Source of the DNA: Candidatus Omnitrophota bacterium
GTDB lineage: Bacteria; Omnitrophota; Gorgyraeia; Duberdicusellales; 4484-171
DNA length: 64,000 nucleotides
Assembly (NCBI GenBank): GCA_021735655.1
Contig: JAIPGM010000001.1
Location: 192,001 to 256,000, forward strand
Direction: 5' to 3'
This document shows positions 16,742-45,091 of the stretch, one piece after another. Below the pieces are notes generated by a model. That model had not been told where the DNA came from. It made no database searches and saw only the letters and a list, made by a program, of their open reading frames with translations. The position numbers and the translations under genes are program-made. The number at the start of each line of letters is the position of its first letter. The first letter of the stretch is position 1.

Positions 16742-16747
16742 AGTTAA

Positions 16748-17566: not shown

Positions 17567-17591
17567 ATAAGCAAAATTGTGAAAATTTAAG

Positions 17592-18464: not shown

Positions 18465-18467
18465 AGG

Positions 18468-20636: not shown

Positions 20637-20646
20637 AAATTTACAT

Positions 20647-26785: not shown

Positions 26786-26786
26786 T

Positions 26787-27590
26787 ATGGGAAAAATTAT
26801 AGCATTTATTAAGAAAGATTTTCAAATTTTTTTAAGTTATAAGCTATTTTTCATGTTGCGTTGGGCGGGTATTGTTATACCGGTTGTTACTTTTTATTTT
26901 ATATCTAAGTTTATCGACCAGCAGGGGAATATTGCCTTCAGCGAATATCGAGGAGGGTACTTCCCTTTTGTGGTTATAGGCTTGTCAGTATACGGCTATC
27001 TTCTTGTCTTGTTGCGTTCAGCTTCTGAAGGTATGCGGCAGGAGCAGATGTACGGAACTTTAGAGGTTATTTTTGCTACCCCGGTAAAAAGTAGTATCGT
27101 AGCAATTTCGGCAGGTTTGTGGAATAGTCTTATTGCTTTAGTTGCTATGGTGGTATGTTTGGTAACCGGAATTTTATTGTTTAAGGAGGGCATTGTTGCT
27201 TTGGATTGGTTTGCCTTATTTTTAACTTTAATTATGATTGTCGTTAATTTTTTAAGCATAGGTATATTGGCTGCTGCAGTAATAGTGGTTTGTAAAAGAG
27301 GTGATCCGATTGCTTGGTTTGCTAGTACATTCTTTGCTTTTTTTGGCGGAGTTTATTATCCAGTGAGTGTTTTGCCTAAAGGGTTTCAGAAAATATCTCA
27401 GTTTTTACCGATCACTTATGCTGTCAGGGCTTTGCGTAAAGTTATACTTGCCGGGGCAACATCTGTCGAGATAACTAACGAGTTAGTTGTGTTGTTTATT
27501 TGTGCAGTATGTTTGTTGCCTTTATCTTTAATTATTTTTAGTTATGCTGTGCGGCGAGCTAAGATGAGCGGTAGCTTATCTTATTATTAG
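26787..27590 (+). CDS. ABC-2 family exporter permease
   Basis: It has six predicted TM helices and sits immediately after its ATPase with a 1-nt gap. It has no similarity to importer permeases. Confidence 0.7.
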   Translation: MGKIIAFIKKDFQIFLSYKLFFMLRWAGIVIPVVTFYFISKFIDQQGNIAFSEYRGGYFPFVVIGLSVYGYLLVLLRSASEGMRQEQMYGTLEVIFATPVKSSIVAISAGLWNSLIALVAMVVCLVTGILLFKEGIVALDWFALFLTLIMIVVNFLSIGILAAAVIVVCKRGDPIAWFASTFFAFFGGVYYPVSVLPKGFQKISQFLPITYAVRALRKVILAGATSVEITNELVVLFICAVCLLPLSLIIFSYAVRRAKMSGSLSYY

Positions 27591-27597
27591 GTAATGA

Positions 27598-28944
27598 TTA
27601 TTCACTTAAATTGTTGGTAATATTTTGCTGGGCATAAACTTCATTAACATAAATTCCTAGCCCTTCTGGGGAGAATCGCTTTTTTGGAACAATGCGTATA
27701 CACCCTTTATATTTTTCAATTACATCTTTTCGAATCATTTTTTTAAATGTTTTTAAACTTTTGTTGTAGTCGTGGCTCGGCCAGAAATTGTATTTTTTAT
27801 TTAGGCGGGAGTAATTTAAAAAACGATCCGGGTTAGATATTATTTTTTCCAGATCGCAGTTAAACCGGTCATTGAAATAATCTATATTTATTCCCTCGGG
27901 TAATAGAAGCTGTAGGTAGATAGCACGTAGAAGGCTCCAGTAAAATGGTTTGTCGTTAGAGAGAAGCGCTTTGGTTTGGCTGAGAGGATTTTTGATGTAC
28001 TCTTTGATATTTATTGAATTCATGCCGTCCCAGCCTATGGCTCCGGCGCCAAGGCCCATAAAGGGAACGCAGAAAACAAAGATTAGTTCTGATAGAAACT
28101 CTTTTCCTTTTTTGGCAAAATAAGTATGAAAATAATTAGGATATCCATTGTTAGATAAATAGTCGTAGGCATGGAGGATTAAATCTAAATTGCCCGCTAT
28201 CAAGTTCATTCGGTATGGGTTGAATATTTTTTTTTCGATTATGTTCGTTGATTTATCAAATAAGGGGCCAGGCACCGGGAGTAAGGTGGCATAAGACATG
28301 TGGTCTGGTTCCATGCTAACAGCAATTTTTAAGTCATCTTTGCATTCGGAAAACGTCTGGCCTGGAAAGTTGCATAGCAAGTCAAGGTTTACGTTTTTAA
28401 AACCAACCTTACGTATGCGATCGTAACTAGAATAAATATCCTTTGCTCGGTGGTCGCGGTTTAAGCCTGAGAGGATTTTGTTATTAAAAGTTTGCACCCC
28501 GATACTTATTCGGTTAAACCCTATAGATTTTAAGCCGCGGACTTTTTGGTCAGTTAAAGAATCAGGAGTTGCTTCTATGCTTATTTCTACGATGTCGCTT
28601 CTATTTTGTCCGGAGCAGGAAAGTATTGAAGAAATTATCTTATCCAGTTCTTTTACCGAGAGTAAAGACGGAGTTCCTCCGCCAAAATAAATTGCTTTTA
28701 GCTTTGTTTTTCGGTTTTTTTCGGAACAAAAGCTTTTTACCGCGAGCTCTTTTAAGAGAGCTTTGATGTAAGGGGTTTTTAGTTCTTTTAAGGCTAGAAA
28801 ATCATTATTATACCTGCGGCAGAAACAACAGAAGTGACATTTGTATTTACAAAAAGGGATGTGGACATATACTAGTGATAAGTCATTGGATTGTCGTAAC
28901 TGCGGTATGGTAAGAGTTGCTTTGGATTTTTGTAGATTGCCCAT
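27598..28944 (-). CDS. HemN/HemW-like radical SAM enzyme (class-C rSAM fold; coproporphyrinogen-III-oxidase family)
   Basis: The N-terminus is VYVHIPFCKYKCHFCCF (CxxxCxxC, ~28810-28860 on the - strand). The family-specific YFGGGTPSLL motif is present. Confidence 0.7.
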   Translation of the reverse strand: MGNLQKSKATLTIPQLRQSNDLSLVYVHIPFCKYKCHFCCFCRRYNNDFLALKELKTPYIKALLKELAVKSFCSEKNRKTKLKAIYFGGGTPSLLSVKELDKIISSILSCSGQNRSDIVEISIEATPDSLTDQKVRGLKSIGFNRISIGVQTFNNKILSGLNRDHRAKDIYSSYDRIRKVGFKNVNLDLLCNFPGQTFSECKDDLKIAVSMEPDHMSYATLLPVPGPLFDKSTNIIEKKIFNPYRMNLIAGNLDLILHAYDYLSNNGYPNYFHTYFAKKGKEFLSELIFVFCVPFMGLGAGAIGWDGMNSINIKEYIKNPLSQTKALLSNDKPFYWSLLRAIYLQLLLPEGINIDYFNDRFNCDLEKIISNPDRFLNYSRLNKKYNFWPSHDYNKSLKTFKKMIRKDVIEKYKGCIRIVPKKRFSPEGLGIYVNEVYAQQNITNNLSE

Positions 28945-30271: not shown

Positions 30272-31510
30272 ATGAATATATGTATATTAGGTAAATATCC
30301 TCCGATACAAGGAGGGGTTTCAACTTGCAATTATTGGTTGAGCAAGGCTTTAGGGCAACGTGGACATAAGGTTTTTGTTGTAACCAATGCTGAAGAAGCT
30401 GGTTTTGAATATAGAGAGCAGATTTATCCTTCTGATGCCCGTCAGCTTGAGCCAAAAAATGTAAGAGTATTCAGTACGCAGCCTTTGAGTAGGCGTTTTA
30501 TCCCTCAGTATCAGCCGTTTATTGCTAAGCTTGCCAGCATGGCAATAGAAATTGTGAAAAAGAATAAAATAGATGTGCTTTACTCAAATTATCTGCTTCC
30601 TTATGGGGTTGCTGGTCTTTTGGTTAAGCAAGCTACGGGTGTGCCTTGGTTTTTAGATCATGCTGGCAGTGACATTACTAATTTATTTGATGAGCCAGAG
30701 CTTAGGCCTATTTTTCTTGAGCTGTTTAAAAATGCAGATTTGGTAGTTAATTCGCCCCAGGTCAAAAGCCGGTTGGTAGATTCAGGGGTTATCCCTGAAG
30801 ATAAACTATCACCTTCTATTGGAAAGATGTCTTACACTAGGGCTCTAGACGATAGTTTTCACCCTCAAGCAAAACCTTTTGATTTAAGTGATTATTTTGA
30901 TCGGTTTAACAGACGCTTACCAGTTTTTACTTTTCTAGGAAAGATTTCTCCCCTCAAAAAAACTTTTGCCTTTGTTGAAGCTGCAGCTAAATTGCCTAAA
31001 GGTAAGTTTTATCTTTTGTTTGTTACCGAAAAAGGGCGGATGCGGATTCATTTGAGGAATTTAATAAGAGAAAAGGGTTTGTTGCCTTACACTTGCCTGT
31101 TGGATTTTAAGCCGCCTTGGCTGGTACCTTCTATCATTACCGCTTCTACGGCAGTGGTTGCCCCAGAAAGCGAAGAGACTCCTTATTTGCCTGAAGGCAC
31201 TCACGGATCCAAAATAGGTTTAGAGGCAATGCTTTGTGGGCGTTGTGCGGTAATCGGAAAAGGAATGAGTAAGAAAGCTTTTTATTATGGTTGTAAAGAT
31301 AAAGAACACTTTTTGGTGGTTGATCCTCATAATATTAATACTTTTGCTAAAAAACTTAAGCTTATTGTAGATGATCCTGGTTTAGCTTATAAAATTGGAA
31401 AAAAAGCCAGGGCTGTTTGGACTGCCAGACGGAATTTTTTTGAGGCTTCCCTAGACTTGTTTGTTAAAAATTTCAAAATAGCTATCCTAAAGAATTCATG
31501 CCTAAGGTAA
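30272..31510 (+). CDS. Glycosyltransferase, GT4-like (GT-B fold)
   Basis: The N-terminus ICILGKYPPIQGGVSTCNYWLSKALGQRGHKVFVVT resembles the Glyco_transf_4 N-domain. The C-terminal domain is divergent. Confidence 0.55.
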   Translation: MNICILGKYPPIQGGVSTCNYWLSKALGQRGHKVFVVTNAEEAGFEYREQIYPSDARQLEPKNVRVFSTQPLSRRFIPQYQPFIAKLASMAIEIVKKNKIDVLYSNYLLPYGVAGLLVKQATGVPWFLDHAGSDITNLFDEPELRPIFLELFKNADLVVNSPQVKSRLVDSGVIPEDKLSPSIGKMSYTRALDDSFHPQAKPFDLSDYFDRFNRRLPVFTFLGKISPLKKTFAFVEAAAKLPKGKFYLLFVTEKGRMRIHLRNLIREKGLLPYTCLLDFKPPWLVPSIITASTAVVAPESEETPYLPEGTHGSKIGLEAMLCGRCAVIGKGMSKKAFYYGCKDKEHFLVVDPHNINTFAKKLKLIVDDPGLAYKIGKKARAVWTARRNFFEASLDLFVKNFKIAILKNSCLR

Positions 31511-32991
31511 TACTTATAAGTATTGATGGGGCTTGTTGGCCGGCAATGAATCACTTGTTTAAGAAAGGTGATTTACCGGTTTTAAGCCGCTTAGTAGACC
31601 AAGGGGTCAGCGGGACTCTTAATAATATTAATATGCTTGAGGCTGATCTTTGGGAGATTTTTGATATATACCGAGAGTATATCAAGAAGATCCCTCGTTT
31701 AGGGAGCCATTCGGATTTATCGGATTGGTTGACTTCAATGACTGGTTTTTTACCTAAGGTTCATGGAGTTATTTCCTCAACCGAAAAAGATTCACGTGGC
31801 AGAGAAATACCAGCTTCTCGAAGGACCAGGAAACGTCCGGTAGCATGGGAGATCTTGGCAAATAAAGGCAAAACAATAGGGGTAATTGGCTGTATGGGTG
31901 ATTGGCCCCCGATAGCTTTGCCTCATTATAATGTATCTAGATTTTACAATGTTGATGATATTTATTTTCGCAAAGCTAATAAGGATGCTGACAGTGGCTG
32001 GAAGCTAAACTTAGATAATCTGCATTCCCGGTTAACTTACCCGGCTAACTTAGCAAAAGAGCTGCTTAAGTTTAAGCCGGATAGTCAAATAGAGTCATTC
32101 ATTCAGAGAGGTAAGCCTTATATTAGAGGGGCTTTGTCTTATAAATTACGCTACGATAGTTTGTATTGCCAATGGGCTAAATATCTTCTTAAACGTTTTC
32201 CTCAGCCTGATTTTTTTGCCCTTTCTTTGCATGAAATACATTCCTTGTCACATCTTTTCTGGGATTGCCTGCCTCTGGCCAAGAAAAGATTTAAGGGCGC
32301 GGTTCATCGGCGTCGACAAAAAAAGTATGGCGGGATAATTGAGGATTATTATCGTTACATTGATAAAAATATTGGCGAAGTATTGAAACTGAGCGATAGT
32401 GATTCTACGGTTATGATTCTTTCTCACTACGGCATGGTCGATTCACGAATATTTAAGAAGTACATATTTATGGATAAAATTTATCATAAATTAAATTTTT
32501 TCTTTTATGATGACGGTATTGATTGGGATCGAACCAGCGTGTATGATAATGTTAATCCTTGGGGTATATACGCTGTACGAAAGGGTTTTATCCGCGGACG
32601 CAACCCCCAAAAAATATTTTTATCTTTAAGCAGGAAAATGAAAAAGATAATCACCAATAAAGGTGAGCCTTTGTTTTTGGATATATCATTTGAAAAACAA
32701 GATAATTCATTTAAAGTAGTGCCGAATTACAAGGCCATAAACTATTCGACAAAGATATTAATCAAGGGCGAGGAGATACCAGTAAAGGAGTTAGTAGATT
32801 TTAAACCGCATTATTCTATACATAATCCTGAAGGGGTTTTCATTGTCTCAAGTCGCAAGAGACAATCTTTAAAGGTTATCAAGGATAAAGTTGATTTTTT
32901 GGACATTTTGCCTACGATTTTTTCCTTTTATGGGATAAAAAAAGATCCTAAAATGTCCGGTGAGGTATTTGTAGACAGAAAAAGGAGGTAA
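31498..32991 (+). CDS. Alkaline-phosphatase superfamily protein (type I phosphodiesterase/nucleotide pyrophosphatase-like)
   Basis: The N-terminus KVILISIDGACWPAMNHL matches the Phosphodiest (PF01663) start (metal-binding Asp in ISIDG). It has a long C-terminal extension. Confidence 0.6.
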   Translation: MPKVILISIDGACWPAMNHLFKKGDLPVLSRLVDQGVSGTLNNINMLEADLWEIFDIYREYIKKIPRLGSHSDLSDWLTSMTGFLPKVHGVISSTEKDSRGREIPASRRTRKRPVAWEILANKGKTIGVIGCMGDWPPIALPHYNVSRFYNVDDIYFRKANKDADSGWKLNLDNLHSRLTYPANLAKELLKFKPDSQIESFIQRGKPYIRGALSYKLRYDSLYCQWAKYLLKRFPQPDFFALSLHEIHSLSHLFWDCLPLAKKRFKGAVHRRRQKKYGGIIEDYYRYIDKNIGEVLKLSDSDSTVMILSHYGMVDSRIFKKYIFMDKIYHKLNFFFYDDGIDWDRTSVYDNVNPWGIYAVRKGFIRGRNPQKIFLSLSRKMKKIITNKGEPLFLDISFEKQDNSFKVVPNYKAINYSTKILIKGEEIPVKELVDFKPHYSIHNPEGVFIVSSRKRQSLKVIKDKVDFLDILPTIFSFYGIKKDPKMSGEVFVDRKRR

Positions 32992-32994
32992 GTT

Positions 32995-33288
32995 ATGAAA
33001 GCCGACCAGTTAAAGGGCAAGTGCATGACTATTAACGAAGAAATTATTTCTTGGCGAGAGATCGACAAAGAGGTAGTATTTCTTAATAAACAGGAAAAAA
33101 GTTTTTACGAATTAAACAAAACAGCTGAGATCATTTGGCGCCAGTTAGCCAAAGGCGGTAAACTGACTCAGGTAATTTCTCAGGTTCAAAAGAAATATAA
33201 GAAAGTAGGTAAGCAAGACATAGAAAGAGATGTAATTGCTTTTATTGCAGATGGAATTAAGAAAAAAATATTTATTGTTAATAAATAA
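32995..33288 (+). CDS. PqqD-family peptide chaperone / RiPP recognition element (RRE)
   Basis: It is 97 aa. VVFLNKQEKSFYELNKTAEIIWRQLAKGGKLTQVISQV...DVIAFIADGI fits the PqqD/RRE winged-helix consensus (hhLN..t...h.LN.tA..IW..L.G..t...I). RBS AAGGAGG lies at 32982-32988. Its stop overlaps the start of the rSAM/SPASM gene by 1 nt. Confidence 0.7.
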   Translation: MKADQLKGKCMTINEEIISWREIDKEVVFLNKQEKSFYELNKTAEIIWRQLAKGGKLTQVISQVQKKYKKVGKQDIERDVIAFIADGIKKKIFIVNK

Positions 33289-34442
33289 TGGCTAAGAAAA
33301 AACATTTTCTTCAAAATCCATTTTTTATTATCCAATGGCATATAACTGAACGCTGTAATTGGCAGTGTAAGCATTGCTATCAGGACAAGGCGCCGGTGCC
33401 TGAACTGCCTTTTGGCAAGCTAGAAGGGGTTCTTGGCCAATGTATGGAACTGTTTAAGACTCTAAACGTTCCCGCTAAGCAAGCTTACATGCATATAGGG
33501 GGAGGAGAGCCTTTCTTGCGGAAGGATTTTTTTAAATTCTTAAAGTTGCTGAGCGTGCATAATGATTATTTAAGAATTCAGATAATGACTAACGGCTCAT
33601 TACTTACGCAGTCGGTAGTTAAAGAATTAAAAAGAATGAAGGTGAACGCAGTGCAGGTTAGCTTAGAAGGATTTGAGCAAACTAATGATCAAATAAGAGG
33701 TCCGGGAAGTTTTAATAAGGCTTTGCGGGCTATAGAGTTGCTGATAAAGAACAAAATTTCCACCAGAGTTTCGCTTACCTTGACCAGGATGAATTTAAAC
33801 GAAATAGATGATTTAGCTGTGTATCTTAAAAGCCTCGGGGTCAGGTCTTTTGGAATCCGCAGATACTTTCCTGAAGGAGAAGGTGGGCAGCTGAAGGAGT
33901 TCATGCTTTCGCCTTTAGAAATGAAAGAGTATTATCTTAGGCGTGAGGCTTTGAAGAAAAAATTAGATGTACCGGGAAAATTTTGGGTTTCTAAAGTTTG
34001 TGAAGATGCATGCTATCTAAGCAGTCAGGATCAGTCTTGTCCAAGCTGCGGTATTACTAGAGGATGTCATCTAAATATTTTTACCAACGGCGACATTCTC
34101 GCCTGTAGGCGTTGTCCGATAGTAGTTGGTAATGTATTAAAGGATAGGTTGCTTGATGTTTACTTTTCTTCCGATACCTTGTGGGCTTTGCGGAATTTAG
34201 ATAATGTCAATCCAGAATGTAGGAAATGCACCTATTTCGATAGATGCCTCGGTGGTGCTAAGTGCGAGTCTTATTCTTATTTTAATAATCCATTTGCTCC
34301 TGATCCCCAATGTTTTAGGTTATTTACCGATCTCCCGGATCCACAGAGATATAATAGGCAGGCAGAGAAAATGGAAGTACAAAAGGTTAGTGCTTTTAAG
34401 GGAGAAAAAAAGTTTACGGATGAGATTGAAGATGTGATATAA
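33288..34442 (+). CDS. Radical SAM/SPASM-domain enzyme (peptide-modifying maturase type)
   Basis: The motif is ERCNWQCKHC at ~33354-33377. The C-terminal SPASM region has seven or more Cys (CPSCGITRGCHLNIF...CRRCP...CRKCTYFDRCLGGAKC). It is flanked by a PqqD protein and a small Cys-rich ORF. Confidence 0.85.
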   Translation: MAKKKHFLQNPFFIIQWHITERCNWQCKHCYQDKAPVPELPFGKLEGVLGQCMELFKTLNVPAKQAYMHIGGGEPFLRKDFFKFLKLLSVHNDYLRIQIMTNGSLLTQSVVKELKRMKVNAVQVSLEGFEQTNDQIRGPGSFNKALRAIELLIKNKISTRVSLTLTRMNLNEIDDLAVYLKSLGVRSFGIRRYFPEGEGGQLKEFMLSPLEMKEYYLRREALKKKLDVPGKFWVSKVCEDACYLSSQDQSCPSCGITRGCHLNIFTNGDILACRRCPIVVGNVLKDRLLDVYFSSDTLWALRNLDNVNPECRKCTYFDRCLGGAKCESYSYFNNPFAPDPQCFRLFTDLPDPQRYNRQAEKMEVQKVSAFKGEKKFTDEIEDVI

Positions 34443-34479: not shown

Positions 34480-34653
34480 ATGGTTAGCCATTCGAAAAAG
34501 AAAAAAGAGAAAAACCAAGACAAAATTGCCTCTTCAGTTGCTGCGTACGAAAAACCTAAGTTTAAAAAAATTAAACTGCTCGATCCCAAAGAGGCAGGCA
34601 TTGCCGGAACTACGGCTGGCTGCGGCTGCTGCGGTTGTTGCTGTTGTTGGTAA
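34480..34653 (+). CDS. Unannotated 57-aa small ORF, candidate RiPP/cofactor precursor peptide: Lys-rich leader + Cys-rich core GCGCCGCCCCW
   Basis: Absent from the ORF track because it is under 60 aa. ATG at 34480 has AGGAG 6-10 nt upstream (34469-34473). The translation is MVSHSKKKKEKNQDKIASSVAAYEKPKFKKIKLLDPKEAGIAGTTAGCGCCGCCCCW, ending in TAA at 34651-34653. It lies 38 nt after the rSAM/SPASM gene and 16 nt before the kinase gene, on the same strand. Confidence 0.6.
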   Translation: MVSHSKKKKEKNQDKIASSVAAYEKPKFKKIKLLDPKEAGIAGTTAGCGCCGCCCCW

Positions 34654-34668
34654 TTTTCTAACTTTTGT

Positions 34669-35559
34669 ATGAGTAAATACTACAATGTAGGTTACCCTCT
34701 TGCAGGAGATTGTCGTGGAGTTATCCAAATACGTACTAAAAGTAAATACCTGTGGGACCTCTTGTGTGGTAAATATGCTATGCTTTTTGGCCGTAAGGCC
34801 TTAAGTGGAAACAATGCTATCCGACGAGATTTTTTCATAGATTTTAATTTTATCTCTGATTATCAAGGTTTAGCCAAAAAAAACAAATCTAAATCTTTAG
34901 ATTTTTCTTGCCAGTTTGATAAAAAGTCAATAATTTATAACTTGGTTACCCCTAGGGGGTCCTCATTGGAAATAAACTATTTTAAGCGTTACGCCCAAGT
35001 GGGCTTGATTGAAAAAGATCCGATGATAACTTACTTTGTTGACAGGATGATTCTTTTTACCTATTCGTTAGCTAGAATGTTTATGGTCCATGGTGCTTGG
35101 GTAAAAAGAGGTAAATCTTCATTTTTTCTCATTGGTCGCAGTGGGGTAGGTAAAACAACCATAAGTTCTTTGTTAACCAATCAAAGTAAAGATTACAAAC
35201 TTATGGATGATGACAGTCCGTTTATTTTTCAGGCTGATGACACTTTGTTTGCTGCCTCCAGAGATCAGCGGCTAGTTGAATATTCACCAAATTATTTGTT
35301 TTTTATATCGAAGAAACCGCGCTTAAAGAGTGAAGCCTGCCCTTTAAGTTCTAAAGAGTCATTTAAGAGGTTAATTGAACACTCAGACGTAATTTTTAGA
35401 AAAAATGACCCGATGACCGATTATCGTTTGGATGTCTTAAGGAAATTGGCAATGCGTTGTAAATCATATCTATTGATTAACGGCAAAGATTTGATTGGTA
35501 GCAAAGTTTTGGCTTCTACTTTATTTAATGGTATTATCAAAAGGAGAAAAAATGCGTAG
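34669..35559 (+). CDS. HprK-related serine kinase (HPr kinase C-terminal-domain-like P-loop kinase)
   Basis: SSFFLIGRSGVGKTTISSLLTNQSKDYKLMDDDSPFI is comparable to the HprK/P block vLitGdSGvGKSE..LeLi.rGhrLvaDD (P-loop plus the downstream DD). It has no N-terminal HprK domain, so it resembles the stand-alone HprK-related kinases seen in RiPP clusters. Confidence 0.7.
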   Translation: MSKYYNVGYPLAGDCRGVIQIRTKSKYLWDLLCGKYAMLFGRKALSGNNAIRRDFFIDFNFISDYQGLAKKNKSKSLDFSCQFDKKSIIYNLVTPRGSSLEINYFKRYAQVGLIEKDPMITYFVDRMILFTYSLARMFMVHGAWVKRGKSSFFLIGRSGVGKTTISSLLTNQSKDYKLMDDDSPFIFQADDTLFAASRDQRLVEYSPNYLFFISKKPRLKSEACPLSSKESFKRLIEHSDVIFRKNDPMTDYRLDVLRKLAMRCKSYLLINGKDLIGSKVLASTLFNGIIKRRKNA

Positions 35560-36277
35560 TAAAATTATGTTTTATTTAGGGTTAGCGGTATTTAGTATGC
35601 TTGTTAATATAACAGTGTTCGGTGCAGATATTTCATATCAGGATTTGGTTCAGAGTGCTAAAGATAATTTTGCTTACCAGGTTTCAAATATAAAAAGTAT
35701 TGAGTATAAAGTAGTGGTTTCTGATATTGATGCTGAAACTATTTTATATATAGATGTTTGGGCGAAGTCCCCGGGGAGAGTTAAGGTGAAGCGTTTGGAT
35801 GTTCGTCCTGAGGCAAGCGATGATGGTGAATTCATTTTTGATAAAGGCAAAAGTTGGTCTAATTCTTCGATGGTTCCGGTAGAGATGTATATGGGGATGG
35901 TCGAGCAAGCTTTGTCTGGTGACCTAAGAGGTGGGGCGGTTCTAGAAGAGGAGAGCGGCCTAAGAGAAGTTTCTGGTACAACATATGCAGTAGCTACTTT
36001 ATTGTTTTTCGGAAAGTGTAAGGTAAAGGCATATTATAAGATACCTGATTCCCGCCGACCGGATAAATACGAAGTATTTTTGCTTCAGGGAGATAATTGG
36101 AACAAGTTAATGGATCTAAAACCACAGGATTACCAGGAGGTTGAAGGATCAGTATTTCCCCGCAGGACTGTCCAAACTCTTTATGAGCCCGAAGGCCAAG
36201 AGGAAAGGGTTATGGAGTTTTACAAAATAAAGGTTAATCAGGAAATAGATGACAGTATTTTTCAGATTCCTCAATAA
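35552..36277 (+). CDS. Secreted protein of unknown function (Sec signal peptide)
   Basis: The ATG at 35552 has AAGGAG at 35541-35546. The ORF-track start 35495 lies inside the kinase gene. MRSKIMFYLGLAVFSMLVNITVFGADIS has an n-region, h-region and AxA-like cleavage site. Confidence 0.5.
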   Translation: MRSKIMFYLGLAVFSMLVNITVFGADISYQDLVQSAKDNFAYQVSNIKSIEYKVVVSDIDAETILYIDVWAKSPGRVKVKRLDVRPEASDDGEFIFDKGKSWSNSSMVPVEMYMGMVEQALSGDLRGGAVLEEESGLREVSGTTYAVATLLFFGKCKVKAYYKIPDSRRPDKYEVFLLQGDNWNKLMDLKPQDYQEVEGSVFPRRTVQTLYEPEGQEERVMEFYKIKVNQEIDDSIFQIPQ

Positions 36278-36345
36278 ATTTTCTTAACTGCATAGATAGG
36301 ATTTTGTTTATAGCATTATCCTTTTTTTACGTCTTGCCTTTTAAA

Positions 36346-37149
36346 ATGAAGAAAAACTATACAGTATCATTTATCGAAAGCGACAGTATGTGGCCGGTCT
36401 TGAGGCCTTCAGATAAGGTATTGATTAAGGCAGTATCTTCTGCTTCGTTAAGAGTAGGAGATATTATTGTTTATCGGAAAAAAGAATTTTCGGTTGCCCA
36501 CCGGATTGTCCGAGTAGTTAATAATAAGGGGTTTTCCACTTATTGGACCAGAGGTGACTTTAATTATAAGCTCGATCAGGTTTCTACTGAAAATATAATT
36601 GGTAAAATAGCTGGAGTTTATCGTGATGGCCACCTAAAGCCAGTAAGAGGTCCTGGGTGCTGCTGGCTGTTTTTTATTGTGTTTTTAGGGAAAGAGGCTT
36701 CAACCAGGGTTTTGGAAGGAATATATTCTCTTGGGTTTTTTCGTAGTTGGATTAAAAGATTGTTTCCTTTAAAGGTTTCTTATGTCGTGGTGGGGGACAT
36801 AAAAAGCAATGATGATTTTAAAAGCTTTTATCATCGGTCATTTGATTCTTTATGTGAAGGTGGAACTCAGACAGGAATTATGGCTTTGTTTAAGGGTAAG
36901 CCCATAGGTAAACTTTGGATTTTAATTGACAAAGAAGGCAGCTTTTTTTTCTATGGTCCTTATGTAAGGTTGCTTTACCGTGTGAGGGGAGTTGCTGGAG
37001 GATTGATTAAGCAAGCTGTGTGCTATCTTGAAGGCTCTGGTTTAAAAAGGTCTAAAGTGTATGCTTTTACAGGAGGTAGCCGAATCCTGCTCAACTGCTT
37101 TAGCCGAGAGGAAATAGAAGCTAGAGGAGATTTTCCAGATAAACTTTAG
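36346..37149 (+). CDS. ER/SipW-type signal-peptidase-like (S26B) domain fused to a ~150-aa C-terminal domain of unknown function
   Basis: ESDSMWPVLRPSDKVLIK contains the catalytic-Ser box SMxP. GDIIVYRKK...VAHRIVRV is a box-D equivalent with His in place of the bacterial Lys, as in archaeal/ER-type and SipW enzymes. The start is uncertain; a TTG at 36304 is also possible. Confidence 0.5.
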   Translation: MKKNYTVSFIESDSMWPVLRPSDKVLIKAVSSASLRVGDIIVYRKKEFSVAHRIVRVVNNKGFSTYWTRGDFNYKLDQVSTENIIGKIAGVYRDGHLKPVRGPGCCWLFFIVFLGKEASTRVLEGIYSLGFFRSWIKRLFPLKVSYVVVGDIKSNDDFKSFYHRSFDSLCEGGTQTGIMALFKGKPIGKLWILIDKEGSFFFYGPYVRLLYRVRGVAGGLIKQAVCYLEGSGLKRSKVYAFTGGSRILLNCFSREEIEARGDFPDKL

Positions 37150-37160
37150 AAGAATTAAAA

Positions 37161-38594
37161 ATGGAACAATTTGACTGTGTTTTAATCCATCATTCCGGGC
37201 CGGGCCCTAATGCTAAGCATATTGCTCCTAATGTCTCGATGGGTGTATTTGCTTTGGCAGATATTTTGCAGAGAAACGGCTACAGGACTGAAATAATTCA
37301 TTTAGGCATAGAAGAATATCTTGATAATAGTTTTTCTTTGGCCAGATATTTAAGAGTTAAAAAGCCATTATTGGTTGGAGTTACTTTGCATTGGCATTTA
37401 CAATGCTCTAAAACCGTAGGCTTAGTTAGAAGTATAAAAAAAATAGTTCCTGGCGTTAAAGTTATTTTAGGAGGTTATACGGCAAGCTTTTTTGCCGATC
37501 AAATAATGCCTGAAGTTAAGGAAGTTGATTTTATTATTAGAGGTGATGCTGAGAAACCTCTGCTGGAGTTGATGCGACAGTTAAAAGACGGCCATTTTGA
37601 CTTAAGTTCTGTGCCGAATCTTACTTGGCGTAGAGCCAAAAAGGTAATACATAACAAGCAGAGTTATGTAGCAAAAAAGGAGGATCTTGATCAGTTAAAT
37701 TTCTCTAATTTTAAACTTATGAAAAATAGTCAGTTTTATTTAGGTTCATTAGCTAAAATTTACCAGTCAGTGCAGGATACAGAAACATACAATCTTCTTA
37801 AACTGAATCCTTTTTATCTTTCTGTTGGTCGAGGCTGTCGGTTTAATTGTCTGTTTTGCGGTGGATCGGCAATGGCGCAGAAATTAATTAACAACCGAAA
37901 TAATTTAGTTTTTCGTTCTTCCAAAAAAGTCATCTCTACCATTAAAGACGCTTTTCGAGAAGGAGTAGATACTTTTTGTATTTGTTTTGATCCTAATCTT
38001 GACAAATCTTATTATTTTGATTTATTTCAGTCTATCCGCAAAAATAGAATAAAAATTTCAATGATGTTTGATTGTTGGTCTTTGCCATCATTTGAGTTCA
38101 TTGATGCATTTGCTAAGACTTTTCAAGATGGAAAACATAGTAGCTTAGCCTTATCTCCAGAAACCGGTTCTGAGCGCTTACGAAAAAAGTATAAAGGTTC
38201 ATTCCATACTAACCAGGAATACTTTGAGGTATTTCGTTATTTACGGGCAAAAGGCATAAAATGTGTTGTGCAGTTTGGCTATATATTTCCGGGTGAAAGC
38301 ATGGTAGATTTTAAGAAGACTAGTGACTTCATTGAAACCACCAATGAAATTTTTAAAGGACGAGTGCTTGTAATTATAAATAAATGCGTGATTGACCCGG
38401 CTTCTTTGTTTTATATGTTTCCGAAAAAGTATAAAATAACCAGAAAAGCGGTTAGCTTCTCTGATTATTGTAGATTAGATCCCTGGAAGAGCTATTCTTT
38501 TTTTCCCGCCCAGCAAAAGAAAATGAAAGCTGTTTTAAAGATGTGGCAAAAGGTTGAGGCTCTTCAGTTATTGGATATTGCTGATCCGATCTGA
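37161..38594 (+). CDS. B12-binding radical SAM (class B) enzyme
   Basis: The N-terminal B12-binding-like region is CVLIHHSGPGPNAKHIAPNVSMGVFALADILQRNGYRTEIIHLG. The rSAM motif is SVGRGCRFNCLFCGG (~37830-37860). Confidence 0.75.
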   Translation: MEQFDCVLIHHSGPGPNAKHIAPNVSMGVFALADILQRNGYRTEIIHLGIEEYLDNSFSLARYLRVKKPLLVGVTLHWHLQCSKTVGLVRSIKKIVPGVKVILGGYTASFFADQIMPEVKEVDFIIRGDAEKPLLELMRQLKDGHFDLSSVPNLTWRRAKKVIHNKQSYVAKKEDLDQLNFSNFKLMKNSQFYLGSLAKIYQSVQDTETYNLLKLNPFYLSVGRGCRFNCLFCGGSAMAQKLINNRNNLVFRSSKKVISTIKDAFREGVDTFCICFDPNLDKSYYFDLFQSIRKNRIKISMMFDCWSLPSFEFIDAFAKTFQDGKHSSLALSPETGSERLRKKYKGSFHTNQEYFEVFRYLRAKGIKCVVQFGYIFPGESMVDFKKTSDFIETTNEIFKGRVLVIINKCVIDPASLFYMFPKKYKITRKAVSFSDYCRLDPWKSYSFFPAQQKKMKAVLKMWQKVEALQLLDIADPI

Positions 38595-38613: not shown

Positions 38614-39774
38614 TTAAAAAATCATCTTGAAAATGTGTTTTATAAGTCTATAGGGTATATAGAAAATTCTTAGGTGGTATTTTCTAGCTGTTGTTACACA
38701 ACGTTGGGGCAGAGAATAATACTTAGCAAATTGTTCCTGTGGTACGGTTAAAATGTATTTTAAGGGGTAGCTTATGGTGTCGTAATAGATAAATTGACAG
38801 AGGGTGTAGATATAAGGTAGATTTTCCATTCTTACTGGGGTGTAGGTAAAGCGCTGCACGATAGAAGATATTAAATATTTTTGCCAACCAGGCACTTTAA
38901 GTTTTTTCAGGAAAAATTTAAGGTCGACATCCAAAACGAATTGCATTTGATATAATAGAAGGTAGAGGCTTGCTTTGGCTTTTTCTTGTTCAGCTGCCTT
39001 TAAGATATATTCCCAGTTAAGATTTTCCTCTTTTAGGATAATCCCCAAGTCACAAATGTATTTTAAATTAAGTATTTTTCCGAACCGTCGCTGATGTAAG
39101 GCAAGGCTTAGAATAGTGTCTTCGGCGCTTAAAGCTCTAAAGGAGTATCCTGGGCCTTGGATTAGGCGCAGGCGATTCCATGCATCAGGCAATACTTTTT
39201 GCTTAAAGCGATTGCAATCTAAAGCCCAGTGCAGTTCGACTAGTGTAGCTTGGCCATTAGTTTCTTTAGTGAAAGAGAGGTGACATTGGTGCTTTCGCCA
39301 GTAAGCTTCGTCAGATCCGAGAAATTCCTTTTTATAGCCCATGGCCAGAAGAAGAAAAGTTGCTTTTTCAAAGTTTTTTTCAGTGGTGAACAGGTCTATG
39401 TCTGATGAAGGACGTATCCCAAAATGCTTGTAGTATTTATCAGGCAAAGAAAAGCCCTTAATCGGAATAATTAGGGTATCGGATTTTTCCGCTTCTTTGA
39501 GTATATTTGATAATTCAATACATAGATTTTCATGGTTAAAAATTTTTAAGCAATAAAACTTTTTATAAAGTTGTTCAAAGCCTTTCGGTATCGGGTATGA
39601 ATTTTCTTTAAGTATAACCTGAAGAAAGTGAGGTAGCTCATGGTAAAAAATAGCATAACCTAGGTTTTTTCCGTGTATGTTTTCTGCTTTGAGGCTTTTT
39701 AGGAGTAGATCACGTTGGTTTCCATAGACTATTTCCTTCGCTAGGTATTTGATTATTTTTTCTTCAGTTTTCAT
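38614..39774 (-). CDS. Nucleotidyltransferase-fold protein (minimal NTase / NTP_transf_5-like)
   Basis: GIRPSSDIDLFTTEKNFEKATFLLLAMGY matches the G[SG]x9-13DhD NTase signature (SDIDL). The ORF track extends to 39882 but would overlap the upstream rSAM gene by 86 nt. The internal start MKTEEK at 39774 is preferred, though it lacks a clear RBS. Confidence 0.5.
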   Translation of the reverse strand: MKTEEKIIKYLAKEIVYGNQRDLLLKSLKAENIHGKNLGYAIFYHELPHFLQVILKENSYPIPKGFEQLYKKFYCLKIFNHENLCIELSNILKEAEKSDTLIIPIKGFSLPDKYYKHFGIRPSSDIDLFTTEKNFEKATFLLLAMGYKKEFLGSDEAYWRKHQCHLSFTKETNGQATLVELHWALDCNRFKQKVLPDAWNRLRLIQGPGYSFRALSAEDTILSLALHQRRFGKILNLKYICDLGIILKEENLNWEYILKAAEQEKAKASLYLLLYQMQFVLDVDLKFFLKKLKVPGWQKYLISSIVQRFTYTPVRMENLPYIYTLCQFIYYDTISYPLKYILTVPQEQFAKYYSLPQRCVTTARKYHLRIFYIPYRLIKHIFKMIF

Positions 39775-39796
39775 CTTGTAGTAATTAAACTTAGTA

Positions 39797-40843
39797 TTAT
39801 AAAAATAAAGGATAAATGGTTTTGCCCGGGCATTCTTCCGGACAGGATTTTCCTTTACGAAAGGTCCGGTATTTTTCTCCATACCATATATCCTTAAAAG
39901 ATAACTTATTTATATTTCCGAGTGATTTTTTTTCGGCATAAACACAACCTAAGACTTCACCTTCTAAAGTTATAACTGATTGAACCCAAGACAGATAGCA
40001 GGGTTTTTGTTTAGTCTGGCTTTGAATTTTCTGAGGTATTTTGTTACCACTGGCAAAATTTAAGAAACTTTTAATATTGTTGGGAATTTTTATCTTACTG
40101 GAAATGCTTGAGATTTTTTCCACGAATTCTTCCTGCTCAGACTCCGGAGGAATAAGTCTTTTATTTAGTTCCGGAGTCATAAGTAGAGGTTTAAACAGCA
40201 GCTTATCTGCCGATAATTTCTGGCTAAGAGCGATCATCTCGGCAGCATTGTGGTAATTAAGATTAGATATTACGTTTACCAGAAACAAGAGAGGGTATCG
40301 TTTTTTGCCTTTTAGGGACTTTATCAGGAAGAGATTGTTTAATAAAGTATTGAAATCTTTTTTGTTTCTGGAGGGCCTGATCCTTTGGAAAGTTTCAGCA
40401 TCCGCGCAATGAAGACTTACCAGAATTTTTTTTACACCCTTTTCTATTAGCTTGGCTATATTAGTTTTATCAAGATAAAAGGCATTGGTCATTAGCTCAA
40501 CATTGATTTTTTGCTCACCGGCTATGCTTATAAGTTTAAACAGATCGGGATGCATTAGTGGTTCACCTTCTCCGGTAAATAAAATAGTGTTTACCTGAAG
40601 GGTTTTTAATTGCTTAACCAGGGCAGAAAATGTATCACAGGAGATATGCTGATCCGGTTTTTTTTTGGATATCGCCCCTGAATGATACCAACACATTTCG
40701 CAAGCCATGTCGCATTTATTGGTTATATCAAGAGTTATCTTAAGCGGTCCGGTAAAAGCTCTGCTTCGGGAAAGTATTCCTAGGAGGCGGAGCATATTGT
40801 GAGAATTTGAAAGATAGTGTAGATTGTTTTTTAACGAAAACAT
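39797..40843 (-). CDS. Radical SAM enzyme with SPASM/twitch-like C-terminal Cys cluster (same family as 12887/17592/62098)
   Basis: The motif is NKCDMACEMC (~40690-40730 on the - strand). The C-terminus is KPCYLSWVQSVITLEGEVLGCVYAEKKSLGNINKLSFKDIW...KSCPEECPG. Confidence 0.8.
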   Translation of the reverse strand: MFSLKNNLHYLSNSHNMLRLLGILSRSRAFTGPLKITLDITNKCDMACEMCWYHSGAISKKKPDQHISCDTFSALVKQLKTLQVNTILFTGEGEPLMHPDLFKLISIAGEQKINVELMTNAFYLDKTNIAKLIEKGVKKILVSLHCADAETFQRIRPSRNKKDFNTLLNNLFLIKSLKGKKRYPLLFLVNVISNLNYHNAAEMIALSQKLSADKLLFKPLLMTPELNKRLIPPESEQEEFVEKISSISSKIKIPNNIKSFLNFASGNKIPQKIQSQTKQKPCYLSWVQSVITLEGEVLGCVYAEKKSLGNINKLSFKDIWYGEKYRTFRKGKSCPEECPGKTIYPLFL

Positions 40844-41059: not shown

Positions 41060-41911
41060 ATGAGCAAACCTTTATTATCGGTGATTATCCCAGCTTTTAA
41101 CGCCGAAATTTACATTGAAAAATGTTTGCAACCATTGATTAAGAATCTGTCTGATGGTTTAGAAGTAATTGTTGTCGATAATGGGTCAGTTGATAAAACA
41201 GCAGCTATTGTAACTGAGGGATACCCTCAGGTAACTTTGTTGAAAAATCAGGAAAATCTCGGTGCTTGTAGGGCTAGGAATCAAGCTATCGAAGTCTCAT
41301 CTGGAGAATGGGTTTTGACTCTTGATTGTGATGTGGTTTTGGAAGATGACTTTATTTTAAAAGTATCTCAGTTGATAGATGATCTGCCGTCTGATCGTAT
41401 TGGAATAATCCAGCCAAAAATATTGCAAGCTGACAAAAAAACTATTGATTCCTGTGGAATCCATCTTTCCTGGTTGAGGAGATTCTATGATCTTGGGAAG
41501 GGGAAAACTGACTCCGGCCAATTCAATGAATCTATCTATGTTTTCGGCGCCTGCTCAGCCTGCGCTCTTTATCGGCGGACGATGCTTGAGGATTTAAAAG
41601 AAAGTGGAGAATACTTTGATCAAAAGTTCTTTTTTTTAGTGGAAGATGTGGACTTGGCCTGGCGAGCAAATAATAGGCAGTGGCAATCATTCTTTTTTCC
41701 TTTTATTTCTTGTTGTCATATCGGAAAAAGTTCAGGTTTTCCTAAGAAATTCCGGCAGTATCTTTGTTTTCGCAATCGCTACTACACAATAGCTAAAAAC
41801 GAGGGGTTGGGTAGGTATGCCGGAAAAATTTTACCTGTGATTATATATGATTTTCCTAGGTTGGTTTATTTGGCTTTAACTAATAAATATTTCTGGACTA
41901 GAAAATTGTGA
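41060..41911 (+). CDS. Glycosyltransferase family 2 (GT-A, inverting)
   Basis: The N-terminus LLSVIIPAFNAEIYIEKCL and VVDNGSVDKT are typical of GT2. TLDCDVVL provides a DxD-like motif. Confidence 0.8.
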   Translation: MSKPLLSVIIPAFNAEIYIEKCLQPLIKNLSDGLEVIVVDNGSVDKTAAIVTEGYPQVTLLKNQENLGACRARNQAIEVSSGEWVLTLDCDVVLEDDFILKVSQLIDDLPSDRIGIIQPKILQADKKTIDSCGIHLSWLRRFYDLGKGKTDSGQFNESIYVFGACSACALYRRTMLEDLKESGEYFDQKFFFLVEDVDLAWRANNRQWQSFFFPFISCCHIGKSSGFPKKFRQYLCFRNRYYTIAKNEGLGRYAGKILPVIIYDFPRLVYLALTNKYFWTRKL

Positions 41912-43407
41912 AAACCGAAAACGGAATTACAAACCGGCGTGATTTTTGGATAAAGATTTCTCTGTTCTTTTTTGCTCTTTTTCTGCTTAGGGTATATGGT
42001 CTTAGCCGGCATGAGTTTTGGTATGATGAAATATACTCGGTTGATTTTGCCCGTTCTCCCTTGCTCAGTTGGAACGCCCCTCTTTATTGGATTATTATTC
42101 ATTTTTGGTCAAAGTTATTTGGTTTGTCTGAATTCAGCCTGCGTTTTCCTTCTGCTATTTTTAGTCTGGCTACTTGCGTAGGGACCTATGTTTTGGGAAA
42201 GATGATATTTAGCCGGAGGATCGGGCTTTTGTCAGCTTTGATCATTGGCTTGTCACCTTTCCACCTCTGGTATGCTCAGGAAGCCAGGAATTACAGCCTG
42301 GTAACTTTTTTGGGAATATTTTCTTCTTATTTATTTTTTCGGGCTCTTAATGAGAGAAAAACAATATTTTGGGTTTACTTTGTAGTAATTTCTTTGCTTG
42401 GCGTGTACACAAACTACTTTTATTTGTTTTTGTTGTTTTTTCAAGGGGTCTATTTTGTTTGCTTCCGGGGGGTCAGATTCAAGCTTAAAGAAATATGGCC
42501 TTTTTTAATAGTTCTTGCCGGATTTATGTTTTATTTTCCGGGATTTATCAGTAAGTTTGCTTTTGTAAAATTAGGTTTTTGGGTGCCTAAGCCAGAGCTT
42601 GGGGCACTACTTATTAGTTTTGAGAATTTTCTTTTGGGTTATAGCGGAAACAGATTTTTTTATCTAGTGGCTAGTTTAATAACTTTAGTTTGTATTGGTG
42701 CGTTATTATATAAAGTAATAAAGGATAAGGCTATTTGCCAGGGGGTATTTTTTTGTTTTTGTTTATCGTTTGCTCCGATATTATTGATATTTTTGTTTTC
42801 CAGTATTTTTTTCTCAATTTATTTAGATCGGGGCCTGATGTTGTTCAGTCCTTATTTTTATATTCTTCTTTCTTTGGGATTGTTTTATTTGGTTCGACGC
42901 TGGAGAATCATTGTTTTTATTTCTCTTGTTTTTTTACAGATAGTTGCTATTTTCGGATTTTATCAGGATCGGATGTATCCGCCGCTTAAGCATCATATCG
43001 GAACTTATCTTAAAAAACCGGTTAAACCGGCCATAACTTTTCTTGAGGACAATGTCCGAGAGGGTGATATTGTTGCTTATACTAATCCTTCGGCCATACG
43101 TTCTATGGAATATTATAGCCAGCGGAGATTAGCTGATTTTTATATGTTTTTTGATCCGAGCTTGTCGGAATCATCTTGGCAAAGGCCTATCCAGGAAACA
43201 GCCACTATAGTTCCATATAATAAAATAAGAGGCTTACCTGCTGAACGTATTTGGGTTATTTTTAATGATTGGGGTAGAACCGGTGGCTTGGATGAACATT
43301 CAAAAATAGTAAAGGATTGGATGGATGAAAATCTTACCTTGAAAACTTCCCGGGAATTTGATGGCTTGTGGGTATTGGAGTATACAAAGAAAGTCATTAG
43401 CCCATAG
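41908..43407 (+). CDS. GT-C fold membrane glycosyltransferase, PMT/ArnT-like (GT39/GT83 family)
   Basis: It has more than ten predicted TM helices. The first periplasmic loop carries the family hallmark RHEFWYDEIYSVDFA (DE motif). The ATGA overlap with the upstream gene indicates coupling. Confidence 0.7.
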   Translation: MKTENGITNRRDFWIKISLFFFALFLLRVYGLSRHEFWYDEIYSVDFARSPLLSWNAPLYWIIIHFWSKLFGLSEFSLRFPSAIFSLATCVGTYVLGKMIFSRRIGLLSALIIGLSPFHLWYAQEARNYSLVTFLGIFSSYLFFRALNERKTIFWVYFVVISLLGVYTNYFYLFLLFFQGVYFVCFRGVRFKLKEIWPFLIVLAGFMFYFPGFISKFAFVKLGFWVPKPELGALLISFENFLLGYSGNRFFYLVASLITLVCIGALLYKVIKDKAICQGVFFCFCLSFAPILLIFLFSSIFFSIYLDRGLMLFSPYFYILLSLGLFYLVRRWRIIVFISLVFLQIVAIFGFYQDRMYPPLKHHIGTYLKKPVKPAITFLEDNVREGDIVAYTNPSAIRSMEYYSQRRLADFYMFFDPSLSESSWQRPIQETATIVPYNKIRGLPAERIWVIFNDWGRTGGLDEHSKIVKDWMDENLTLKTSREFDGLWVLEYTKKVISP

Positions 43408-43518
43408 TAGGCCTGTGTTTTGTTGATGATTTAGCTGGGGTTATGATAAAATATGTAGACTAATGAGAATTACTGTATTAAACGAGACTCATTTACAGCA
43501 AAAGCTTAACCGAAAACA

Positions 43519-45081: not shown

Positions 45082-45091
45082 GCAGTAGATT

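Follow-up and report, generated by a model that had tools for sequence, protein, structure and literature searches.

The stretch of DNA analysed here (hereafter the window) comprises 64,000 nt of contig JAIPGM010000001.1 from a Candidatus Omnitrophota bacterium (assembly GCA_021735655.1, positions 192,001 to 256,000 of the forward strand). The gene under study occupies positions 34669-35559 on the + strand of the window, where an uninterrupted open reading frame (ORF) with an ATG start and a TAG stop codes for a protein of 296 aa resembling HPr kinase/phosphorylase (HprK/P). This product is identical to the 'hypothetical protein' K9L86_00380, encoded on a 341-kb contig of a Candidatus Omnitrophica metagenome-assembled genome (MAG), and its start codon is supported by the N-terminus lining up with the N-termini of its homologs. 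Immediately upstream there is a small ORF (34480-34653, +), preceded by an AGGAG ribosome-binding site and coding for the 57-aa precursor of a peptide made by the ribosome and modified after its translation (RiPP), which consists of a leader with the motif YEKP, a GIA motif and the core GTTAGCGCCGCCCCW. An earlier note, made from the DNA letters and their translations, had described the gene at exactly these coordinates as coding for a stand-alone HprK-related P-loop kinase directly downstream of the precursor, and both the reading frame and the adjacency hold, with the precursor stop at 34653 located 15 nt ahead of the start codon at 34669. At the other end, the stop codon overlaps the ATG of the next gene (35552) by 8 nt and a strong AAGGAG ribosome-binding site lies within the 3′ end of the kinase-like gene, the overlap suggesting translational coupling. 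Such tight junctions place the gene inside a series of + strand genes that resembles an operon. The promoter and terminator scan and the RNA folding of the precursor-kinase junction gave nothing above chance (z -0.82), and no attenuator is proposed.

The protein possesses the complete H..GxxGxGK[ST]..DD pattern of enzymes of the HprK/P and phosphoenolpyruvate carboxykinase (PEPCK) type. The Walker A motif, or P-loop, GRSGVGKTT (aa 156-164, 35134-35160, +) and the stretch YKLMDDD (aa 176-182, 35194-35214) had been pointed out before and are both present, and the pattern is completed by His141 (codon CAT, 35089-35091, +), which was found by the motif scan as a His-Gly pair 15 residues ahead of the P-loop and matches the His located before this loop in HprK/P and PEPCK. 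In the alignment with HprK/P from M. pneumoniae (PDB entry 1knx) this pair is matched with HG of the latter, and within the triplet D180-D181-D182 (35206-35214, +) the residues D181-D182 are the counterparts of the HprK 'DD' and of D158/D159 of the peptide kinase PsmK, the spacing of His, Walker A and DD being HprK/P-like. Among the 30 family members aligned, no variation is seen at H141 (30/30), G156, G161 and K162, D182 is conserved in at least 90% of the sequences and invariant among the 10 closest relatives, and the whole pattern is retained in 27 more distant relatives according to the motif scan. The suggestion that the protein represents a catalytic block lacking the N-terminal HprK domain turned out to be half right: the latter is indeed missing, but the block is not a bare one, as it follows a family-specific β-rich domain of about 118 aa (34669-35022, +), delimited on the secondary structure of the model described below and containing conserved G97-S98 and D117. 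No Pfam match was found for aa 1-130, and the domain shows no resemblance to its N-terminal counterpart in HprK. This domain is common to the distant relatives as well, with the hhalign comparison of the A1 and A3 families spanning query columns 17-299.

A phmmer search against 1.84 billion representatives resulted in 68 relatives, all of them metagenomic, including 33 with E ≤ 1e-10. Nearly all of them are 280-340 aa long, and the closest homologs are thus proteins of the same type rather than the full-length HprK/P enzymes that the earlier note had named as the outcome speaking against its proposal. Only two members of the family have a named source, in both cases an Omnitrophica MAG, the rest being metagenomic singletons. 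The word-index homolog search returned nothing besides the protein itself when started from the single sequence and six proteins when started from the family profile, and the related-locus search with a 10-sequence alignment gave zero loci in genome contigs and three, two of them new, in metagenome contigs. Two of the relatives, P0035 (2223 aa, matched in 15 stretches) and P0042 (756 aa, matched in seven), show many matches to the P-loop region of the query and apparently consist of repeated P-loop modules.

The best sequence match of the protein in PDB is 1knx, which is weak for the single sequence (E 0.58, aa 132-199 spanning His, the P-loop and DD) and reaches E 5.5e-4 over 91 residues with the 30-sequence family profile. 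HprK_rel_A is the named family most commonly matched by the family members (22 of 30, best E 4e-9), with hpr-ser, PEPCK, ScmC and HprK_rel_B coming next; Hpr_kinase_C or hpr-ser is matched by 12 of the 30 and weak ScmC matches are found in nine. The family profile was also aligned with the profile of the 27 more distant relatives of about 300 aa over 272 columns (probability 99.9%, E 5e-35), and these relatives match HprK_rel_A (25/27), HprK_rel_B (22/27), ScmC (16/27) and hpr-ser (15/27). Four proteins, P0069-P0072, carry a precomputed PF27840 (ScmC) annotation. PF27840 is absent from the output of the Pfam scan, in which even the annotated P0071 has no ScmC match at E ≤ 10.

The AlphaFold2 model built on the 30-sequence alignment (predicted local distance difference test score, pLDDT, 90.6; predicted template-modelling score, pTM, 0.88) is a confident one. 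The best 50 of the 57 Foldseek matches with E ≤ 0.001 are all PEPCK or HprK/P, and in the structure comparison a score of 9.9 was obtained for one complex-I subunit and scores of at most 7 for ordinary P-loop NTPases. The model is superposed on PEPCK over 169-173 residues and on HprK/P over 111-144, and its two-domain layout fits the former better than the latter. The remaining Pfam matches of the protein belong to AAA and ABC families, and a generic AAA or ABC ATPase was rejected because these matches cover the P-loop of about 25 residues alone, whereas the fold points specifically to PEPCK and HprK. The PEPCK-like P-loop fold common to HprK/P and PEPCK is confirmed at the superfamily level, in agreement with the HprK-related identity proposed earlier.

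The contigs of twelve relatives were examined (designated here by locus numbers such as L001), which together with the window make 13 distinct contexts, and in 11 of them a precursor gene is located immediately upstream of the kinase-like gene. The ten further precursors are found in L001 (989-1180), L004 (2367-2522), L005 (7828-7983), L006 (279-461), L010 (about 508-690), L011 (3-170), L012 (9848-9982), L014 (787-957), L015 (6596-6751) and L018 (about 9700-9990). The precursor ORFs are 44-63 aa long and consist of a basic N-terminus, a Y-E/K-K/A-P motif with basic residues after it, a hydrophobic-G-x-A motif and a core rich in Cys, the last residue of which is usually Trp or Tyr. The leader motif is YEKP in 9 of the 11 precursors, YKKP in L015 and YEAP in L018. 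The cores range from about 6 residues (GVSSCY in L012) to about 27 and contain runs of C, G, S and A such as GCGCCGCCCCW; the window core, with its 2 Thr and 7 Cys, belongs to the precursor ...AAYEKPKFKKIKLLDPKEAGIAGTTAGCGCCGCCCCW and ends ...CCCCW, and other examples are ...VYEKPLIKEIKFKNLNKKAGAAATSGCGCCGCGCGCW in L004, ...AYEKPRLKKIKWLDFRKDIGAAGVSSCY in L012 and ...EYEAPSFKKV...LPSALAGSCASCGSACSSGGCSCGCGGACACSSSW in L018. The precursor family has no NCBIfam or Pfam matches and is apparently undescribed. The scan of the 64-kb window for small ORFs with YEKP or a Cys-rich sequence gave 34480-34653 only, and a second precursor within the window was rejected on these grounds.

Nine of the precursors, the window one and eight others, were aligned with MAFFT, and those of L015 and L018 were read by eye. 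Full invariance is limited to Y-E-K-P and the last Cys, and one further column is occupied by Ser or Thr in nine of nine sequences (five Ser, four Thr). In the window peptide this column corresponds to T45 (codon 34612-34614, +), three residues past G-x-A, at the N-terminal edge of the Cys-rich core, which makes it the putative phosphorylation site. By eye, the L015 peptide (…ELVASSGGGGCSCY) is compatible with the same column. The earlier note had named two candidate sites, of which the 'TTAG' before the core stands with its second Thr, namely T45, while the 'SS' of the leader was rejected as it is not conserved and has no counterpart in the other peptides. The C-terminal residue was also rejected as a phosphosite, being Trp in the window peptide.

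The kinase-like gene belongs to a cassette with several conserved members. Upstream of the precursor, the + strand carries genes coding for a GT4 glycosyltransferase (30272-31510, assigned by Pfam), an alkaline-phosphatase-superfamily Phosphodiest protein (31498-32991, Pfam), a PqqD-family peptide-binding protein acting as RiPP recognition element (32995-33288, PF05402, E 4e-11) and a radical S-adenosylmethionine (SAM)/SPASM maturase (33288-34442), the closest model of which is the radical SAM enzyme of the ACGX system (TIGR04340, 169 bits, below the cutoff of 400). The GT4 and Phosphodiest genes recur together with the cassette, and the PqqD gene is kept in L005, L010, L012, L014, L015 and L018. 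Identity to the window proteins in tblastn amounts to 57-66% for GT4 in L005, L012 and L015 (35% in L018), 39-49% for Phosphodiest in the same three loci, 34-43% for PqqD and 49-60% for the radical SAM/SPASM maturase in five loci. The kinase-like gene itself is the most divergent of the conserved cassette genes (27-40%), which would fit an enzyme tracking a fast-evolving peptide substrate, although this is suggestive only.

Downstream of the kinase-like gene, the + strand codes for a secreted LolA-like protein (35552-36277), which has a weak LolA_like match and a signal-peptide-like N-terminus MRSKIMFYLGLAVFSMLVNITVFGA. Its homologs occupy the same position in L001, L004 and L012, a hint that a hydrophobic or lipidated product may be carried in the periplasm or outside the cell. 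It is followed by an S26 protease resembling signal peptidase I (36304-37149, +; TIGR02228, 67.6 bits with a cutoff of 51.85) with the SDSMWP motif and a conserved C-terminal extension of about 170 aa, GNAT-like, for which weak or faint Acetyltransf_1 (GNAT) matches are seen in the homologs from L001/L002, L012 and L015. Orthologs of this protease, 31-38% identical, are located in L001 (3008-3877), L005, L012 (12634-13470) and L015 (11319-12122). In classical signal peptidase I substrates small residues are found at positions -3 and -1. The small residues of the G-x-A motif fit this rule, and the S26 protein is therefore likely to be the leader peptidase.

The cluster also contains a B12-binding radical SAM enzyme (37161-38594, +), for which tblastn found no orthologs in the other loci at E ≤ 1e-5, and on the - strand an NTP_transf_5 nucleotidyltransferase (38614-39882, PF14907, E 5.8e-30) and a second radical SAM/SPASM enzyme (39797-40843), the genes of which overlap by 86 nt. 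The second radical SAM/SPASM enzyme has orthologs in five loci (40-47% identity), and NTP_transf_5 is kept in six of the six long contexts (the window, L001, L005, L012, L015 and L018), with the orthologs being 39-49% identical. In L018 the NTP_transf_5 domain is fused to a radical SAM/SPASM enzyme in a single protein of 760 aa (13106-15388, -), and this fusion together with the overlap in the window suggests that the two enzymes work together.

The density of radical SAM genes in the window is exceptionally high, with nine genes and 13 radical SAM domains by Pfam stretch counts (10524-23805, 27598-28944, 33288-34442, 37161-38594 and 39797-40843), including a protein of 1284 aa with three radical SAM and three SPASM domains fused (12887-16741) and a protein of 1052 aa with a B12-binding and two radical SAM domains (20647-23805). 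Two pairs of ABC-2-type transporter genes are located at 6294-10540 and 26108-27590, one of the ATPase subunits being unusually long (1155 aa). The flank of the cluster (41060-46288) codes for a GT2 protein, two PMT_2 family glycosyltransferases (35-41% identity in tblastn) and an MBOAT protein, so that the RiPP genes look like being embedded in an envelope-glycan or lipid-modification locus. Accessory enzymes vary between the loci. A fused ThiF-YcaO protein adjoins the kinase gene in L018 (7319-9685, -), a U32 peptidase is present in L005 and a methyltransferase of about 530 aa is encoded just upstream of the precursor in L004 (802-2388), L005 (5087-7841 for both genes) and L012 (8266-9882), all three being missing from the window cluster.

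A minimal cassette was found in L016 (855-3977), which contains PqqD, a radical SAM enzyme, a 55-aa precursor with a PYEKP leader (PYEKPAVRTIKL...), a relative of the kinase-like protein annotated as ScmC in Pfam (PF27840) and an S24-type peptidase. The presence of an ScmC-annotated relative in such a cassette ties the family to the SynChlorMet cassettes of Haft, which appear to share the leader motif and the gene order with the YEKP cassettes, and the PYEKP-leader peptide of L016 may be the SynChlorMet precursor, which was previously unclear.

Taken in this context, it is highly probable that the protein is a catalytically active phosphotransferase dedicated to the RiPP cassette. The more specific proposal, on which our judgement is about evenly balanced, is that it acts as a Ser/Thr kinase of the precursor and that the phosphate is then decorated in the manner of PsmK and PsmN. 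It has been shown that short HprK homologs phosphorylate RiPP precursors, as was also pointed out in the earlier note: PadeK, ThcoK and PsmK modify lasso precursors, including those of paeninodin and pseudomycoidin, at the C-terminal Ser before cyclisation (PMC8498205, PMC6993621). PsmK requires the D158/D159 pair, and the phosphate installed by PsmK is extended with one or two hexoses by PsmN, for which the description 'uncharacterised NTP transferase' is used, giving phospho-hexosyl-Ser in pseudomycoidin (PMC6993621). The kinase-like protein and NTP_transf_5 of the window are likened to this pair, with NTP_transf_5 as a putative PsmN-like partner, and this is the reason why a decorated phosphate is proposed.

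According to the proposed order of steps, PqqD would bind the precursor via the YEKP leader and present it to the radical SAM enzymes, while the kinase may bind the leader through its own N-terminal β domain. The γ-phosphate of ATP would then be passed on to the conserved Ser/Thr that borders the core on its N-terminal side, namely T45 in ...GIA-GTT45AGCGC... of the window peptide. The catalytic roles of His and the Asp pair are carried over from HprK/P and PEPCK: K162 of the P-loop would hold the phosphates of ATP, and H141 together with D181/D182 would hold the metal and activate the hydroxyl. NTP_transf_5 would decorate the phosphate with a sugar or a nucleotide-derived group in a phosphodiester linkage, possibly helped by GT4 and the alkaline-phosphatase-like protein; the radical SAM/SPASM enzymes would modify the cysteines, and the S26 peptidase would cut the leader off after the small-x-small GxA site.

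Several observations weigh against this proposal. All the scores of the protein to the curated kinase families are far below the cutoffs: 16.2 bits for HprK_rel_A (TIGR04352, E 0.0043, residues 77-196 aligned, cutoff 200), 14.6 bits for hpr-ser (TIGR00679, cutoff 240) and 15.4 bits for Hpr_kinase_C (PF07475, cutoff 33.3). In addition, no match at E ≤ 0.1 was found to HprK_rel_B (TIGR04355) or to ScmC (TIGR04249, cutoff 125 bits), there is no precomputed PF27840 annotation (entry P0001 '-'), and PF01293 (PEPCK, cutoff 26.5 bits), which the relatives match weakly, gave no match at E ≤ 10. The comparison with the HprK_rel_A and HprK_rel_B models that the earlier note had suggested thus does not make the protein a member of either family, and judged by its sequence it is outside all the curated families tested, that is HprK_rel_A, HprK_rel_B, ScmC and HprK/P. 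With respect to the whole fold, the match to HprK/P is no better than that to PEPCK, a phosphotransferase of small molecules, and the locus is rich in glycosyltransferase, PMT_2 and Wzy-type genes, making a sugar or glycan acceptor plausible. The membership of PsmN in PF14907 is something that we infer from its description quoted above. No precursor is found directly upstream of the kinase-like gene in L007 and L017, both being contigs of less than 2 kb, and in L018, the most divergent precursor, the hydroxyl is out of register, with a Ser directly ahead of the first Cys. Finally, the window peptide ends in Trp and most of its relatives in Trp or Tyr (W, Y, L or A among all the relatives), and an internal site has no direct precedent in the enzyme superfamily. 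Since the target of the RiPP kinases known so far is a C-terminal Ser, both the site and the recognition mode of the window protein, if it is compared with them, must differ from theirs.

Some of these observations would be explained by a kinase for a non-peptide acceptor, such as a sugar, a nucleotide-sugar precursor or a lipid-linked glycan, which feeds GT4, NTP_transf_5, Phosphodiest and PMT_2 and the product of which might serve to glycosylate the peptide or to assemble a glycan of the envelope. A glycan intermediate had been named as an alternative in the earlier note, too. GT4 and Phosphodiest genes always accompany the cassette and PMT_2, Wzy_C and GT2 genes often do so, a nucleotidyltransferase typically requires a sugar-1-phosphate that a kinase could supply, and the overall fold is PEPCK-like. 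We consider this unlikely, since the placement right after the precursor gene is typical of peptide-modifying enzymes, the minimal ScmC-type cassette of L016 keeps the kinase-like gene with no sugar genes visible on the contig, and good conservation would be expected of a sugar kinase, whereas the kinase-like gene is the least conserved in the cassette; moreover, the sole characterised short HprK homologs are peptide kinases (PMC8498205, PMC6993621). Another alternative is an enzyme phosphorylating Ser/Thr of the core only transiently, with elimination to dehydroalanine or dehydrobutyrine and attack by Cys leading to a lanthionine-type thioether, in which case the product would contain no phosphate. 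A kinase step followed by elimination is an established route in RiPPs, taken by class III/IV lanthipeptide synthetases as well as by kinase/lyase pairs, and the cores do mix Ser/Thr with many Cys, the number of Ser/Thr in L001 being about that of Cys and the minimal core of L012 reading GVSSCY. It is nevertheless distinctly unlikely here, as neither a phospho-Ser/Thr lyase (OspF/HopA1-like or LanL-type) nor a LanC-like cyclase is among the domains detected in the window cluster, the two Thr of the window core face seven Cys, and the conserved NTP_transf_5 partner points to a phosphate that is retained and decorated as in pseudomycoidin (PMC6993621).

The remaining alternatives concern the activity itself. 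The protein might be no kinase in vivo at all, serving instead as an ATP-binding scaffold or chaperone, as an ATPase which presents the precursor to the radical SAM enzymes or releases it, or as a phosphorylase or pyrophosphate-dependent enzyme comparable to HprK/P running in reverse. HprK/P itself is bifunctional, being both a kinase and a phosphorylase, the N-terminal domain has no known function, and a few family members (P0004, P0019, P0022 and P0023) are substituted in the first Asp of DD or in the P-loop glycines. The fact that H141, K162 and D182 are invariant or nearly so across about 57 diverse sequences argues for retained catalysis rather than mere binding, which leaves this explanation very little weight. 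An ordinary HprK/P of carbon catabolite regulation, present at this place by chance, shares with the protein the catalytic motif and the fold only and is effectively refuted: the TIGR00679 and PF07475 scores given above are far below the cutoffs, the HprK N-terminal domain is missing, all the relatives sit in RiPP cassettes, and no HPr gene was found in the window by tblastn at E ≤ 10 with B. subtilis and E. coli HPr queries, the absence of ptsH having been noticed before.

Among the known systems, the protein would work most like the HprK-type kinases of lasso peptides, by analogy, and at the same time it fails their defining context. Like PadeK, ThcoK and PsmK, it is a short HprK-type P-loop enzyme with no HprK N-terminal domain encoded beside the precursor in a RiPP cluster, the DD motif essential in PsmK is conserved in it, and an 'uncharacterised nucleotidyltransferase' and a PqqD-family protein co-occur in both cases; the proteins are set side by side here by description, with the window protein reaching only 16 bits to HprK_rel_A. 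Unlike the lasso systems, which are hosted by Firmicutes and Proteobacteria and not by uncultured bacteria of the Omnitrophota type, the window has neither a lasso cyclase nor a transglutaminase-type B protein, its sole Asn_synthase-like match being a 291-aa PP-loop protein 15 kb away, and the PqqD protein is partnered with radical SAM/SPASM enzymes. The substrates differ as well, with the C-terminal Ser of the lasso precursors replaced by Trp in the window peptide, which would make the site internal.

The second system to be compared is the bioinformatically defined SynChlorMet cassette, in which ScmC (TIGR04249/PF27840), with its function unassigned, is accompanied by ScmD (PqqD) and by ScmE and ScmF (radical SAM/SPASM). 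In architecture the window cassette looks alike, with an HprK-like protein of about 300 aa, PqqD and two radical SAM/SPASM enzymes, but its proteins score only 21.6 bits to ScmD, 105 to ScmE and 84.9 to ScmF (cutoffs 100, 400 and 400, respectively). The PF27840 relative of L016 likewise follows the PYEKP-leader peptide and precedes the peptidase of the S24/S26 type. Further differences are the window core, which consists of a run of cysteines, and the additional genes for NTP_transf_5, GT4 and Phosphodiest in the window. HprK-related kinases A and B of the 'HPr-rel-A system' are similar to the protein in size and share the same catalytic motif, HprK_rel_A being the best-scoring curated model, and this system is associated with PqqD and nucleotidyltransferase genes.

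HprK/P from L. casei (1JB1, 1KKL) and M. pneumoniae (1KNX) possesses the same PEPCK-like P-loop domain with His, Walker A and DD, and differs in having the N-terminal domain, an HPr partner, which is missing from the window, and another genomic role, the identity being 13-17%. ATP-dependent PEPCK is much longer (about 530 aa compared to 296), its Foldseek TM-score is 0.36 and the identity 10-15%, and the genomic context of the protein has no signs of oxaloacetate/PEP chemistry. The open-access literature yielded no paper on this cassette, on YEKP polycysteine precursors or on a radical SAM RiPP pathway with an HprK-type kinase. The enzyme type and its general role are known; novelty lies in the RiPP class, in the probable site rule and in the sequence family.

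To our knowledge, phosphorylation is among the rarest modifications of ribosomal natural products, and the HprK-type peptide kinases that have been studied to date act on lasso peptides only, at the C-terminal serine. The family described here may, as a tentative and rather doubtful generalisation, be an unannotated HprK/PEPCK-like branch of peptide kinases that marks a RiPP class not described so far, belonging to uncultured bacteria of the Omnitrophota type. Its YEKP polycysteine peptides would be rewritten or cross-linked by several radical SAM enzymes and would receive a phosphate on an internal Ser/Thr where the core begins, the phosphate being extended by NTP_transf_5 and GT4 into a phosphoglycosyl or phosphodiester appendage that possibly tethers the peptide to an envelope glycan or lipid, and the SynChlorMet (ScmC) cassettes would be the same kind of system. 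The protein itself shows the HprK/PEPCK superfamily recruited into other chemistry, namely the radical SAM/SPASM maturation of polycysteine peptides, in a phylum without cultured producers. Should the protein prove to be a sugar kinase instead, it would help to explain the supply of substrates to the glycosylation genes of the cassette. If the phosphorylation of the precursor is confirmed, it would provide a new site rule for RiPP phosphorylation, a genome-mining handle in the form of the YEKP leader combined with an HprK-like gene, a potentially portable pair of a peptide kinase and a phosphoglycosylation enzyme for engineering, and a function for the ScmC- and HprK-related 'hypothetical' proteins of radical SAM cassettes, which would be the first functional assignment for ScmC.

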